DNA of 64,000 nucleotides. Source: Eledone cirrhosa. Lineage: Eukaryota. The number at the start of each line of letters is the position of its first letter. The stretch's first letter is position 1. Positions 27,993-59,523 of this stretch are shown piece after piece. The DNA lies in NCBI GenBank assembly GCA_964016885.1, contig OZ024740.1, forward strand, positions 269,700,001 through 269,764,000, in the 5' to 3' direction. The position numbers and the translations under genes are program-made. A model generated the notes under the pieces. The model was given only the letters and a program-made list of their open reading frames with translations, was not told the DNA's origin and made no database searches.

Positions 27993-28054
27993 ACACCTCA
28001 ATAAATTGAATAAAGATCTAACACTTCGACCTTTTTATTATATATATAAAACTC

Positions 28055-28894
28055 TTGCCACCCTAGACACGTTAAAATTAATATTCCCTACAACTTAGCC
28101 AAGAGAATCTGTACTATAGTCTCCAATAAAAACACCTGCTACTTACGGCTACAAGAACTAAAGGACACACTCATAGGCAGGGACTACCCTGCATCACTAA
28201 TTGACAATGGAATCCAACGTGCCCTAAAACTCAGTACCCAGGACCTTAGACACCCTAAAGTAAATCAACCGAAACTAAAAGCTCTTCCATACATCTCCAC
28301 ACACAACCATCTCAACAATGAGGCCTTTGACACTATCCTCCAGAACATCCCTGTGTTGAAAAAGGACCATAGAATGAACAAAATCCTACGAACACACGAT
28401 ATCATAAAGAGCAAAAGACAATCTAAGTCAATGAAAAACATCCTAACACATGCCAAAGTACTGCCAACCACAACAACGAAACCCACAGTAAAAAAATGCG
28501 ATAGACCCAACTGTGGCATATGCATCAACCTAATAGAGGGTTCGGAATTCTATTTCAAAGAAGGACAACGTTTTATAGTAAAACACAATTTCACATGCGC
28601 ATCAGAAAATCTAATATATGTATTAACTTGTTCAGGTTGTCGAGAACAATACATAGGCCAGACCAAAAAAGCCTCCGCCAACGCATGACTGTCCATAGAT
28701 CCCAAATTAAAATACGGGAATACAGGAAAATACCACTGAGTGAACACATTGATACCTGTGCCGCCCAAAATTATCCCAACTTCAGAATCTTTCCCCTCTA
28801 CAAATTTAAAGATAATGCCACCCACACCCAGCGCATCAGCAAGGAATCTTACTTTATTAACAAATACGGACCCCATCTAAACCCTTCTCGCTAA
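28055..28894 (+). pseudogene. Penelope-like element (Neptune-like) RT-thumb/linker + GIY-YIG endonuclease, 5'-truncated and frameshifted
   Basis: NIPYNLAKRICTI, KCDRPNCGIC Zn linker, FTCASENLIYVLTCSGCREQYIGQT, SLRQRMTVHRS, LSEH. Confidence 0.88.
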
Positions 28895-46410: not shown

Positions 46411-47521
46411 CAGGCTTCGCTGCCCGCTAGGCTGAACAGAGCAAACTGTCAAAGTATCGGCCAATCTTTAATAGGTTTGTGGCAATCAAGACCTCCGGTA
46501 TTCTTCGATCTCGAACCACAGACTTACTCACTGCTATCGAGCTAGAGTTGGCTACCCACAAGTGTGAACTCCACGAGGTGGAATGGTTGCTCCTATGCGC
46601 CTTCCTCACCACCTTGGGGTCTTCTCCACCCTATGAACCCGCTATAGAGGAGGCAGTGATTGATATTAATATATGATTTAGGAAGTAAGTACAGGCCCTG
46701 TGAAGAGTGTGAACTATTTTGGCAGCAGGGCATCACTGACCTCTACCTTGCAAACTACCGACAGGGATTATATACCTTTCTCTTCCTCCATACCTTACAC
46801 ACACTCTCAGATCCCTTGTCACGATATGTCTGGGTGTGTTTTACATGTTGTTTAGGGAAGTAGTATCCCAAACAGTAAGTAATATTGAAACCAACTCTCC
46901 ATCTTGGCTATTTCACCTTAAGGACTCAAAAATCAAATCCTAGATGGTAGGAATCTCTCAGGAAAGCTGGACAGCAGAAGGTCTTCAGAAGAGAAACAAA
47001 CCTCAAGCGAGTGTATCTTACACTCTAAGGGAGAAGAATAAACCCAGGAGCAATAATAAGACCGACTGTCTATCTCGGCTAGTTCAGCTTAAGGAACCAA
47101 ACATCAAATACGATGATGATAGCATTCTGTGGATTCTCGATAAGTAGGAAATCAAAAATAATAGAAACACGATTATTAATTAAAACATAAGATGAGAGCA
47201 TTTGCATTTAGTTTTCATATGGCAATCGATTGTTTTCGATACATACATTCATAAATACAAACACATACACATACACATACACACACACACTCAGACACAT
47301 ATACACACATACACGCACACACACACACACATACACACACACTCACACACACACACGCATATATATATTATTTTATAATAATTAACTCCGTACTTGCACC
47401 ACCAACCACACAATCGAAGACGGGTGAGTTACATTACGTTGAGTGCTCTCCATAATATTACATCGAGGTTGACCATACGGAATGACCAGTTCTATCCAGT
47501 GGTAAACCAACAAACCTAAAT

Positions 47522-47703
47522 AAACAATTGTTTCTACTTTATGCACAAGGCCAGCAATTACCCAGTGCATTACTGGTACTTTATTTTATCGACCCCGTAA
47601 GGATGAAAGGCAAAGTCAACCTCGGCGGAATTTGAACTCAGATCGTAAAGGGACGTAACTATGCTGGAAAGCATGGCGCCCGACCCTCTACCGATACTGC
47701 CAA
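47522..47703 (-). mobile_element. SINE S1, full length
   Basis: Head, B-box, core and tail. Confidence 0.88.
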
Positions 47704-47785
47704 TAATACCATTATATAATACCATAATACCAAACCTAAATAAATAATGCTCCAGGAAATGTTGAGCGCTTTCAGATGTAATAAT

Positions 47786-47890
47786 TGTTTCTACGTTAGG
47801 CACAAGGCCAGCAATTACCCAGTGTATTACTGGTACTTTATTTTATCGACCCCGTAAGGATGAAAGGCAAAGTTAACCTCGGCGGGATTT
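47786..47890 (-). mobile_element. SINE S1, truncated, with 16-bp TSD
   Basis: TTTCAGATGTAATAAT on both sides. Confidence 0.85.
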
Positions 47891-48601
47891 TTCAGATGTA
47901 ATAATGAACAGCGGCACTGACTCCAGTGTACAGCTATCGCCAGCATGGGACTAACTACACACCACTCGGATTTTGGCTGCATTGGGCTTTGTCTACCTCC
48001 CACCTCAACCATGCATTGCTGATTCCCTGTCGTGAATATTCAGACTCCCTCAGACCTCATAGATTCTTCGGGGAGTCTACATATTCTACTATACCCTGTA
48101 TTGTATCGACTGAATTCTCTATCCTATATTTCAGGGCGTTTGGGATTCACATTGAAAATTAAGACTCGAACATACACTAGGTATCACCTGATTCCATTCC
48201 AACTCTTCCATCCTCTATATCTGTATAACCTTGTATTCTCCAACTGCACCTGATCTGTATTTTATTTCTACTCTATTTTGGTTTCTTCGATATGTTCTTA
48301 TATACTTCCTCTTTACTCCCTTCATCACCACCCTAGTTATGACTGCATTTTATTTATGTATTTTACTTATGATTTTATTTATGTATTTATTTATTCGCTT
48401 TACTCTCATTATATACTTATCCTTGTACTCATTAGCACACGACCCTAGAATATTACTCTCTGTACCCTTGTATCTGTTTATCTTTATTCACTCCCCCTAC
48501 CCACCCAAAATTCACACAATATATCACCCGGACTTACTGGGGACTAAATATAGTCTATTTGCACATTTCATCAGATTTTACCACTTTCAACTTCACATCA
48601 C

Positions 48602-48808
48602 GGGTGTGAATAACTAATAATCGTTTGGTACACGTGATAATCCGACGGATGTGGCGGCTTCCCCGACTGTACGCCAGGCGCTCGGGTCGATCAGCATTCC
48701 TAGAGTGCTTGGAAAAATAAATTTCCCCTTCTTTCGGCAAACGAAATTACTCGGAACAGCTGCTTCGCCCTGACTTGGTACCCGCCGCGCCACCGGTTAT
48801 TGACCGCC
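48602..48808 (+). ncRNA. Unknown structured RNA motif, copy 1
   Basis: Conserved blocks and pairings shared with 48895-49115. Confidence 0.5.
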
Positions 48809-48894
48809 AAACAGTACCTTTAAATTCTAAGCTTAATCATAACATTTAACGTTATCATCCCTCCTTCTACTAGCACTTAACTAAATCCCCCACC

Positions 48895-49115
48895 AGTGTG
48901 AATAACTAGTAATCGTTTGGTATATATACGATGGCCAGCCGACGGTGGCGGACTTCCCGCTAGCACACCCGTCGCTTAAGACAGTTAACATTCCTGGAGA
49001 ACTCGGAAAAATAAATTTCCATTTCTTTCGCTAGACGCTAATACTCGGAACCGCTGACACGCCGTTGGGACCCGGGCTGACCGGGGGTCCATAACGTCGC
49101 TGGTTATTGACCGCT
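48895..49115 (+). ncRNA. Unknown structured RNA motif, copy 2
   Basis: Closing helix AATAACTAGT/GCTGGTTATT, strong GC hairpins, pseudoknot pairings. Confidence 0.55.
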
Positions 49116-49665
49116 AAGCATGGGCTTAATCTTTACTCTATATTCTACTCTGAAACTTTATCGTGACTATCTATAATACACTTAAACTTTTTCATAAAAG
49201 CCTCCTTCTGTAAATTCCTTAATCTCATAACATTAAACCTAAGCCTTATTTTTCTAATTTCATCTTAAATGGCATCTTCTAAACCTAAACATAACTTTAA
49301 CGTTTCCAATTGTTAATCGTAATTTCTGTCCATGCATTATACCATGCAGACGCCCACTATATATTACTATATGTAGCTTTGTTGAAGAGATATATGTTCT
49401 TTGAAATAATATTTTTCGCGGCTCTTTCTAGCACGCATGACCAGCTTGACTGTAACCTGATCTTAACGCTGGTCTCTGTCATTGACGGAGGATGGTACTA
49501 CACGATAAGCCTACGCCCCTTCACCAGATGGACATAAGTAGGCTTAATAATCACCACTTGAGGGCGGCCAACCTGGGTATAAGCTGTTAAATGTTCGGTC
49601 ACCCTCATGTCTCTGATTTTCAGCCCCATGGATTTTGTCTATTATATTCCTTTGTTATATTTCAA

Positions 49666-49723
49666 ATACCTGAAGATGTCACCGGATTCATACTGAACCC
49701 GGTCATTGAAATGATCATAGTAT
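49666..49723 (+). ncRNA. Type I hammerhead ribozyme
   Basis: ATAC-CTGAAGA-stem II (ACCGG/CCGGT)-GAAA-T-GATC-A-TA-GTAT, then AATAAA. Confidence 0.75.
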
Positions 49724-49819
49724 AATAAACCTTTTAAGGAATTACACCAGTCCAGCCTCCTGTTATTTTATAATATATATATATATATATATATGTTTAT
49801 AGTGAAAGGACGGTTTGTA

Positions 49820-57363: not shown

Positions 57364-57571
57364 ATGTATGCACATATATATATATATATATATATGTATA
57401 TATTCATATGTATATATATATATGTATGTGTATGTGTGTGTATATATATATAGAGAGAGAGAGAGACACACATATATATGTATATATATATATATATATT
57501 ATTAGAAAGTGAGGTTTTTTACAAAATGAAAAATAACCGAGGTGTCCTACACGAGTAAAAGTATAAAGAAA

Positions 57572-57910
57572 AAAAGATGAAATCGAAAATGCAACTGGAG
57601 TCTTATTTTAAAAAAATATATATATTTATTTGATTCCTTTACCGGTTTCGCAGTTCTTCTGCTTTTCAAAAGTAGAGTTGAGATGGATGGTCTGTGGTTT
57701 TTCTCACATCTGGTTGGTCTTAGAATGTTACTTGTTTTATATGGAGAAAAGTGGCTCGAAACGCCATATAAAACAAGTAACATTCTAAGACCAACCAGAT
57801 GTGATAAAAACCACAGACCCTCCATCTCAAGTCTACTTTTGAAAAGCAGAAGAAGTGCGAAGCCGGTAAAGGAACCAAATAAATATATATGCATTTTCGA
57901 TTTCATCTTT
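57572..57910. mobile_element. Head-to-head inverted repeat (~128-bp core arms), probable Penelope pLTR pair
   Basis: 57617-57744 versus 57764-57890 with a 19-nt loop; each arm carries an outward-facing hammerhead-like motif + AATAAA. Confidence 0.75.
57636..57673 (-). ncRNA. Type I hammerhead, U3:A8 core variant
   Basis: CTT-TTGAAAA-GCAG-AAGAA-CTGC-GAAA-C-CG-G-TA-AAG. Confidence 0.6.
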
Positions 57911-59523
57911 TCTTCTATATATATATATATGAGTACGAATGTGCTCAAGACTATTCTGATTCTTTGTTTTATTATTACATTAATCAATTTCCATTTGCTT
58001 ATGTTTAGTTATTTATCTGATCTCACTCTTGTTACTTTGTATTTGTTCTCAATTTGTAGATGAACCGATCTCCCTGCATGCGGTCTAAGTATATTCCATT
58101 TATGCCAAGTATGAACTGGTTGTTTTGAAATACACCAAGTAGTTTCCTGGTGTCGCTATGTAACTACTTCAATTCACTTAATTTCCATGTTTTTATGTTA
58201 TATTTGTAGTTTATATCTTTGATTCTTAGTATATTTACACTATTTATCTTATTTCAATTTTTAACAATACTCTGACATATATGTTTAAGTTTCGTTTTCA
58301 TGTCTGAGTATAGCAGTTTCATCTACCCCATACTTATTTGTTATGTGTCGAGAGAATTATTTAACAACCTTTAGTATTTCTTTCAACTGAGTATTGTTTT
58401 TAAGTACTCTGTTTTAAGTTATCTTTATATATAGGAGATTGTTTATGGGTTTTTTCGTAGCATACGCATTCATTGGTGGTCTGTTTCGATAATCAATCCA
58501 GGGCTGATTAACACTTTTTATTTTGTTTTATCGCTATCTTCAATAATAGTCCGGTTTACCAGTAGCTATCATTTAGAACCATGAAACCAATTCCAGAATC
58601 ATTTCTGTTCCTCTTGAAATGTTATTGATTTCCATGTGAGTAATAAGCTTGATGTAGAGTATCGCTATATGCCATTTTTATTAGAGCGTATACACAGTGT
58701 GGCACAGTTTTAGGGCCGAGAGTAGGTGAGATAATAGAAAGAGCTGACTATGAGCTGGTGTGGTAATACTTGACTCACAGGAAATCATCAACAGAGAAAT
58801 TGGTGCAGGTTCTTATTCGTGGCTCCTCGTCACATTCGTGCAACAGTCCAAGAATGTGATGAATATGTGAGGAAATTCAACACCATATGATAGATTTGGT
58901 TCCCTATGACCACAAGGCTATCTCAAAATAATATCAGATTCAAGGATTCTCTAAAAGCATATGGCTAATAGGGGCCTTTAATCACCAGTTTATCATCTTC
59001 GTCTTGCAGCACTGAGTAGATGAAATCTGGAGAAATGTAGGAATCCACCGGTGCCAGTAATGAAAGAAACTAAACGTAACAACACTATTCAAGAAGTATA
59101 CAAAAGCCACCAAGAATGTACAACTCCCCTATTAATTAGCGCTTGTGAACTGCAGTGCAGGCATTTTATTATTTGCAGATTTAGTAACAGCAATATACAG
59201 TAACTGTTGAATAATCTATCAGAGAAAGAAAAATGTACAGTGTCGATTGAGATGTAAACATGCATCGAATTTTACGAACTCCCAAATCAAGCGTTTTTAG
59301 TGATCCCATCCTGTCCCGAACGGTTTATTTAGAGGTAATGGAGTACTCTTTAGAGAATATGGGATGCCTCGTAGTTCAGCTACTTTCAAGAATGTTCAGG
59401 AATATGCAAGTGATTGGCACACACGTTTATCGAAGTTATTTTGTGCATTGTTCTTCTCTAGATGGTTAAATCTGTTTCATTGTATAGTTTTACGCTTTTG
59501 CCTCACCTATTTTAATTACAATC

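Follow-up and report, generated by a model that had tools for sequence, protein, structure and literature searches.

A non-coding, hammerhead-bearing Penelope-like repeat of Eledone cirrhosa carries a duplicated, constrained 60-nt module with a predicted three-way junction fold

Non-LTR retrozymes, or non-autonomous Penelope-like elements (PLEs), are described as repeats with no ORF and with one minimal type I hammerhead per monomer (PMC7229834; bioRxiv 10.64898/2026.07.22.740005), occurring in thousands of tandem and partial-tandem copies in genomes that also hold autonomous PLEs, and their monomers measured 51–972 bp in a survey that limited periods to 1000 bp (bioRxiv 10.64898/2026.07.22.740005). 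EN+ PLEs (Penelope/Poseidon and Neptune) have pseudo-LTRs (pLTRs), an inverted 5′-truncated partner, insertions in microsatellites and two alternative 3′ ends after the hammerhead, one of which is AC-rich (PMC8557442; PMC11167929). The repeat analyzed here shares these features of both groups. In contrast to the retrozymes as described, its monomer is about 2.0–2.8 kb long (2088 nt in copy L027), its copies are mostly dispersed, 5′-truncated and inverted, and it holds two to four constrained internal junction modules; in contrast to EN+ PLEs, it has no RT/GIY-YIG frame and no sequence match to two intact families. The monomer thus falls outside the 50–1000 nt given for retrozymes, which is a reported range rather than a strict criterion. 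The element class is known, and, by the searches made, this repeat is a new, large non-LTR retrozyme with an undescribed constrained RNA module; the literature searched contained no description of the family, of its core or of editing fixed in such an element, and Repbase or Dfam may hold the repeat.

The repeat was characterized from one copy in a 64,000-nt stretch of E. cirrhosa DNA (the window; GCA_964016885.1, contig OZ024740.1, positions 269,700,001 to 269,764,000), and coordinates below are those of the window. BLAST of 30 loci showed that the monomer comprises 47368–47528 and 47890–49775, both on the + strand. The 5′ piece (47368–47528) follows position 49775 in other copies and is the region after the hammerhead in tandem copies; its AC-rich end, CCAACAAACC, is one of the two usual copy ends. 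The body (47890–49775) ends in (TA)n and has continuous 87–90% matches in L002, L003, L004, L007 and L027. The two parts are split by a later insertion (47523–47890, no strand assigned) of an unrelated, abundant SINE-like repeat in two partial copies, which shows a direct repeat and is missing at the equivalent site in L002 and L027. Partial tandems forming pLTRs were found, often with an inverted 5′-truncated partner (L027, L010, L016, L012, L084 and L096), and copies often adjoined microsatellites. A type I hammerhead core (CUGANGA, GAAA, UH) was present once per monomer, and no long ORF was shared among 30 + 40 copies; lineage changes lacked codon periodicity. Because it combines a Penelope layout and a hammerhead with the absence of a common long frame, the element is a non-autonomous PLE or large non-LTR retrozyme. 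The window copy begins and stops at the same TTATTTTATAAT site between microsatellites and therefore covers one monomer, no more and no less. The starts of L080, L100 and L180 lie close to this site, and the shared start and end may stem from a circular template or from pLTR recombination.

The hammerhead itself lies at 49666–49723 on the + strand, 3′ of both units described below, as the initial annotation had placed it. It is of the minimal type I form (CUGANGA, GAAA and a short palindromic stem III), with a predicted cut after 49719, and scores below the Rfam gathering threshold; its pattern had 4,640 exact matches in the genome, whereas the reversed control had 0. A strong hairpin, the third in the element, precedes it in the pLTR at 49559–49607 (+; TGAGGGCGG...CCCTCA; MFE −28.6 kcal/mol in L027). 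Between 49450 and 49545, the pLTR also holds a stem surrounded by TGACG...CCAGA, a sequence that the subfamilies retain and that bears a loose likeness to a tandem G.A motif; Rfam did not score this stem as a SECIS. A second abundant repeat with CTGAYGA...GAAAC (GTATACGATGCTGACGATAGCTAATAAGCTTGAAAC) was seen at L057:5875 and in L060, L062, L075, L076, L080, L081, L090 and L093, was tandem at 468 nt in L081, and is probably another hammerhead-bearing retrozyme family.

A search of the 3.0-Gb genome, whose karyotype appears octopus-like, as does the SINE flanking the element, yielded 1,517 first-look candidates for unit A and 1,038 for unit B, 40 of each being scored, and 1,012 exact matches to the core pattern. 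When copies were picked by a motif-unrelated 5′ pattern, 34 of 40 held at least two cores, six of these holding three or four; of the six without a core pair, L141 and L155 break inside the units. Among 20 insertions picked by their hammerhead, 19 kept only 35–278 nt of continuous match upstream (two may run further). Copy ends clustered just past the hammerhead. One lineage duplicated the whole A–B block, giving three or four cores per monomer, and a descendant subfamily lost the extra block again (duplication or loss copies: L142, L143, L149, L151, L152, L153, L096 and L081). The search for an autonomous parent led to two very young autonomous Penelope families, each with many intact, near-identical copies. 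One (L201; G000:C3:182889500-182899400) has a 1217-aa frame with a long asparagine-rich stretch in a 4.1-kb unit, and the other (L202; G000:C5:17086800-17096700) is a 4.7-kb unit in which a separate 455-aa frame lies ahead of a 784-aa RT/GIY-YIG frame. Neither shares the core or pLTR sequence, and no autonomous parent was found among these two families. Elsewhere in the window, 28050–28894 is a 3′ fragment of the L202 family, and 57547–58063 is a near-perfect inverted repeat with two near-identical frames on opposite strands, possibly a foldback element.

Unit A (48604–48812, with a 12-nt private deletion at 48771) and unit B (48896–49119) lie on the + strand, with 164 of 266 columns identical in a pairwise alignment. 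The initial annotation had described here a duplicated, retroelement-borne, + strand RNA motif of no known class, and this much was borne out: two similar GC-rich units are present in AT-rich DNA with every quoted block, the A–B pair recurs across a high-copy retroelement and is not confined to this locus, the units are read on the same strand as the hammerhead, and they match no Rfam family. Its alternative of a decayed ORF was rejected on either strand, since lineage changes showed no 3-nt periodicity and length classes were mixed. The blocks that it called invariant are all present here, but the A and B versions of GTGTGAATAACTA.TAATCGTTTGGTA and GGTTATTGACCGC agree in no subfamily except that of the window copy; among ten subfamilies, the 5′ block is deleted from unit A in five and the 3′ block from unit B in two. 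The principal proposal, a pseudoknotted domain of ~210 nt, was not supported; the constrained part is a nested 60-nt junction made of the annotated helix B and two hairpins, at 48697–48756 in unit A (core A) and 48991–49050 in unit B (core B), both on the + strand. The duplicated module is real, but smaller and less exotic than first read.

With search patterns placed in the core, the 3′ arm and the unrelated 5′ region, and with twice-fetched identical loci dropped, 109 distinct A+B segments were collected. Removal of six near-duplicate neighbors left a tree set of 103 copies; columns covered by fewer than 40 copies and flanks of less than 55% identity were also dropped. These copies fall in about ten subfamilies on three lineages. 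Changes common to at least three copies were counted as lineage changes, arising in transposing lineages, and changes in one copy as private, mostly reflecting decay. The hammerhead bin, which served as a positive control for constraint, had 6 lineage and 111 private changes (ratio 0.05). Core A, with 13 and 194 (0.067), is held about as tightly, and core B, with 29 and 198 (0.146), more weakly, whereas the arms had 283 and 1318 and the spacers 299 and 1228 (0.24). The constraint on core A remained significant when 49 copies were selected on the 5′ region alone (8/82 versus 312/1085, P = 0.002); that on core B was not significant in motif-independent samples (22/92, P = 0.48; range, P = 0.48–0.89). 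An earlier unmasked analysis of 27 motif-independent copies showed no difference for both cores together (22/100 versus 270/1155); its private counts were inflated by unrelated flanks, so that we give it less weight, although it still counts against constraint. The cores are no mutational cold spot, since their private mutation rate (0.032 per column per copy) is near that of the spacers (0.032–0.040). In addition, subfamily-wide deletions cut the arms but stopped short of the core, and no sampled subfamily had lost either core.

Part of the variation in the core loops is exchange between the units, since 19 of 44 lineage changes in the cores (6 of 14 and 13 of 30) moved one unit toward the other; chimeric A/B units were found in L106 and L182. 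Such exchange likely also explains why the outer blocks match in the window's subfamily and not in others. Core A positions 19–24 (AAUAAA, in a loop) had no lineage change, whereas core B lacks AAUAAA in most subfamilies. At core positions 33–37 (window 48727–48734 and 49021–49028), UCUUU hardly varied, even though the bases predicted to pair with it differ in unit B. As a mirror of TTTC, it might lie along GGAAA/UUUCC as a third strand, forming U.A-U triples.

The predicted minimum free energy (MFE) structure of the core is a three-way junction formed by TTCC-NN-GAGTR/YACTC-GGAA, a hairpin GGAAA-N6-TTTCC and a hairpin TCG-N5-CGA. This structure was fixed before changes were mapped onto it. 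Pair-breaking changes made up 4 of 44 lineage changes but 163 of 396 private ones (P = 1e-5), and changes at unpaired core positions 27 of 44 and 138 of 396, respectively, a share that was reached by none of the 59 shifted labelings and by 18 of the 2000 random ones. The ratio of pair-keeping to pair-breaking changes was 11:4 on lineage branches and 86:163 among private changes (P = 0.004). RNAalifold on 28 cores returned the same three helices without the outer four pairs. Conversely, covariation, which was to be expected from the first reading, did not appear: in the aligned copies of this one-genome family, 0 of 19 pairs changed on both sides and the score did not beat shuffles. Lineage changes making G-U numbered only four, as opposed to one making A-C.

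The helices on which the pseudoknot had been based behaved differently from the junction. In unit A, helix A has 6/6 pairs in four of ten subfamilies and 5/6 in one, and is partly or wholly deleted in five; in unit B, it has 6/6 pairs in eight of ten and 5/6 and 4/6 in the other two. Changes in its 3′ strand kept pairing five times and broke it four times. By sequence, its 5′ strand has a nested partner outside the annotated span (GTTTGG at 48623 with CCAAAC at 48807), and its 3′ strand competes with the local TCG/CGA hairpin, which has 3/3 pairs in all 20 unit-subfamily cells. The closing helix has 9/10 pairs in the window's subfamily but 5–8/10 elsewhere, and is absent where deleted, its 5′ strand being lost from unit A in five and its 3′ strand from unit B in two of ten subfamilies. 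The hairpins of copy 2 that had been called strong, as well as the CAAACG pairing, rest on changes that are rare or absent in sister copies: CCGTCG depends on A>T at 48972 (20 of 20 sister copies have A), GGACCC on C>A at 49070 (18 of 20 have C) and CAAACG on T>C at 48738 (18 of 20 have T). Across the ten subfamilies, the crossing helices were thus not kept with covariation in all active lineages. A pseudoknot in unit B is possible but is not what defines the module. Breakpoints in the units were dispersed and gave no sign of a common cleavage position or of poly(A) ends, both of which were rejected; an apparent block at B+148 to +171 was an artefact of one library copy.

The arms are predicted to fold around each core as a nested rod. 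Well-kept copies folded as irregular rods with the junction at the tip, several having z-scores of −2 to −5 (lowest, −5.2), but 9 of 22 folded units had z weaker than −1, and the predicted folds of the window's own units were not superior to those of shuffled sequences (z −1.04 and −1.39). Within a subfamily, B arms paired 3.6 kcal/mol better than the additive expectation (permutation P = 1.5e-4), indicating co-evolution; the subfamilies share ancestry, but controls that crossed the units on this same tree gave P = 0.83 and 0.09. Co-evolution was not significant for the A arms (P = 0.16), nor was the tendency of arm changes to keep one fixed structure (P = 0.11).

The arms, mostly those of unit B, also bear an excess of A>G changes. 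On lineage branches, the A>G rate per site per unit length was 1.22 in arms against 0.19 in spacers, a six-fold difference, whereas that of T>C was 0.46 and 0.42 (61:28 versus 19:46, P = 2e-6). The excess is found on the + strand only, in every lineage, and is confined to predicted duplexes; being so specific to strand and region, it is hard to explain without paired + strand RNA. The pLTR hairpin at 49559–49607 likewise had 23 A>G and 12 T>C changes in its two bins (23:12 versus 30:40, P = 0.04). A neighboring G raises the A>G rate, as by slippage; away from G, the excess stays four-fold. CpG decay was rejected as its source, as a 5′ C was not enriched and T>C was not raised. New Gs were more often paired (0.46 to 0.75), a gain that is partly circular because G pairs well. 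A-to-I editing before reverse transcription may well be the cause, as it fits both strand and place, and octopus RNA is heavily edited (PMC5625713). Depletion of G 5′ of the edited A is given there as typical of ADAR (PMC5625713; PMC5663115), but 26 such sites were observed against 18.8 expected, and a 3′ G was enriched (23 versus 12.1). Selection for stem repair is a nearly as plausible cause of the excess, whereas RT error is an improbable source. Editing and stem repair both need paired + strand RNA.

Searches of Rfam, of viral and metagenome sequences and of this genome showed no relative of the module outside the family. Rfam 15 gave no matches at gathering in the window and none at E ≤ 10 on both units of L002, a better-kept copy. 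By exact patterns, which would miss diverged relatives, viral sequences held 14 and 19 matches, none extending beyond the pattern, and metagenomes held one, in unrelated, apparently bacterial coding DNA. In sequencing runs, two 151-nt contigs from a second organism (organism B) covered 49403–49652 only and speak neither for nor against a relative. With a looser pattern in the genome, 98 of the first 100 matches listed were this family, the other two being a short-period satellite. A selenoprotein or UGA frame with a SECIS was rejected, UGA being mixed with UAA and UAG in frames not common to copies.

We tentatively favor the reading that the core tip is a protein-binding signal, which the full-length RNA would need for its carriage to, and copying by, an autonomous Penelope RT. 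Cores lie 620–1010 nt upstream of the hammerhead and are absent from most finished insertions, so that they would act on the full-length template rather than on the DNA made from it. Given the lack of a translatable frame and of a fixed cleavage position, a protein-binding tip is the simplest role. By analogy with small retrozymes, read-through transcripts of tandem copies would be cut by hammerheads into uncapped, non-polyadenylated monomers or circles. Each unit of the + strand RNA may fold as a long rod, a scaffold presenting the junction tip, to which a host RNP or transport protein would bind rather than the RT itself; the tip would protect or export the RNA, or deliver it to newly made Penelope protein. 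Core B would be a partly redundant second copy exchanging sequence with A by template switching. CTE, RTE/MTE, the RSV direct repeats and the Alu dimer binding SRP9/14 are retroelement RNA transport or RNP signals of this kind. The element resembles them in its duplicated 150–250 nt structured modules in the 3′ part and its small conserved, putatively protein-binding tip, a likeness of design only, with no sequence match to Rfam models or host 7SL RNA. Descent from a 7SL-derived SINE (Alu-like dimer) was rejected, scores lying within those of shuffles in 12 of 12 unit tests and with both profiles. In the genome, more than 20 full-length 7SL RNA genes stand in tandem, ~1.2–1.4 kb apart (G000:C12:42.10-42.13 Mb; L117-L120). 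Copy ends cluster immediately 3′ of the hammerhead, and reverse transcription would begin there, as in the anole PLE. For that element, the one PLE studied in vitro, the first 172 nt of the ORF, just past the hammerhead, suffice for RT binding and initiation, and the RT-binding site is just 3′ of the hammerhead and not 600–1000 nt upstream (PMC11167929).

It is less likely, though worth serious consideration, that the cores are duplicated DNA enhancer or promoter modules driving the next tandem monomer, with the hairpins as a by-product of inverted sites. Each core has four to five GGAA/TTCC words, which may resemble ETS, STAT, NFAT or Rel sites, in CpG-rich units (CpG observed/expected 1.1–1.5, versus 0.6 in spacers), and since the paired positions are these same words, DNA-binding sites would give a similar pattern of constraint. 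Two to four core copies per monomer and the lack of covariation are also consistent with DNA modules, and PLEs are said to be transcribed from a pLTR promoter (PMC11167929). Conversely, the A>G excess and the co-evolution of the B arms point to paired RNA around the core, lineage changes favor the keeping of pairs (11:4 versus 86:163, P = 0.004), and the position of the cores, 620–1010 nt upstream of the hammerhead, is beyond the 35–278 nt kept in 19 of 20 insertions.

Direct binding of the core by the Penelope RT, in the way that the CR4/5 three-way junction of telomerase RNA binds its enzyme, appears distinctly unlikely. The short hairpin of core B has a 5-nt loop, N-U-R-G-R, that is like P6.1 by the P6.1 loop consensus, and core constraint is similar to that of the hammerhead. 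PLE RTs are sister to telomerase RTs (PMC8557442), and telomerase RNAs bind TERT by a compact three-way junction with a short stem-loop (PMC3603654), so that the two systems are alike in a compact junction, a short 5-nt-loop hairpin and a related RT family; unlike telomerase RNA as described there, the element has no template/pseudoknot domain and no Rfam match, its junction is duplicated and its core A loop differs. Against direct binding, 172 nt past the hammerhead suffice in the reconstituted PLE (PMC11167929) and copy ends cluster there in this family too, the two intact autonomous families lack the core, and core A, the more constrained, has A rather than G at loop position 4.

That the core has no function, being a slowly mutating AT-rich stretch homogenized between A and B by template switching, is still less probable. 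Nearly half of the core changes are conversion-like, chimeric units exist (L106 and L182) and core B is near neutral in unbiased samples, but private mutation rates near those of spacers show no cold spot, exchange between two copies does not, on population-genetic reasoning, lower the long-run rate, and neither core was lost in any sampled subfamily while arms were freely deleted. We regard the original reading, in which a pseudoknotted domain of ~210 nt would serve as a new ribozyme, an IRES or a nuclease block, as very unlikely. The 6/6 pairing of helix A in unit B of eight of ten subfamilies, its five kept against four broken changes and the lack of an Rfam match favor it; against it, whole subfamilies lack the 5′ strand of helix A in unit A, the more constrained of the two, five (A) and two (B) of ten have lost the closing helix, nested partners exist, the scattered breakpoints without a shared cut site or poly(A) ends lend a ribozyme no support, and no ORF follows for an IRES to serve. 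In plant viruses, Y-tipped rods serve as cap-independent enhancers, and the unchanged AAUAAA at positions 19–24 of core A would suit a relic 3′ translation enhancer or polyadenylation hairpin from a coding ancestor. Hammerhead cutting can promote cap-independent translation (PMC13725137), but such a relic is highly improbable, as lineages that code for nothing would not keep it under selection, AAUAAA is missing from core B in most subfamilies and no copy has a poly(A) end downstream of the core.

For the gene-less relatives of Penelope, which borrow their RT, the hammerhead was the only internal RNA signal found described in the literature searched. This family marks a 60-nt candidate signal by selection alone, and its ten natural subfamilies can serve as a ready-made set of mutants. 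Being confined to predicted duplexes, the A>G excess is a record in DNA of paired RNA, whether or not it arose by editing; if it did, RNA editing feeds back into the genome through retrotransposition. In a bolder and doubtful combination of these readings, the junction, selected as hard as the hammerhead, would recruit the telomerase-related Penelope RT or a host complex delivering it, and the rods would have been rewritten A>G, round after round, by editing that is copied into DNA, so that editing would drive the heritable evolution of the element.
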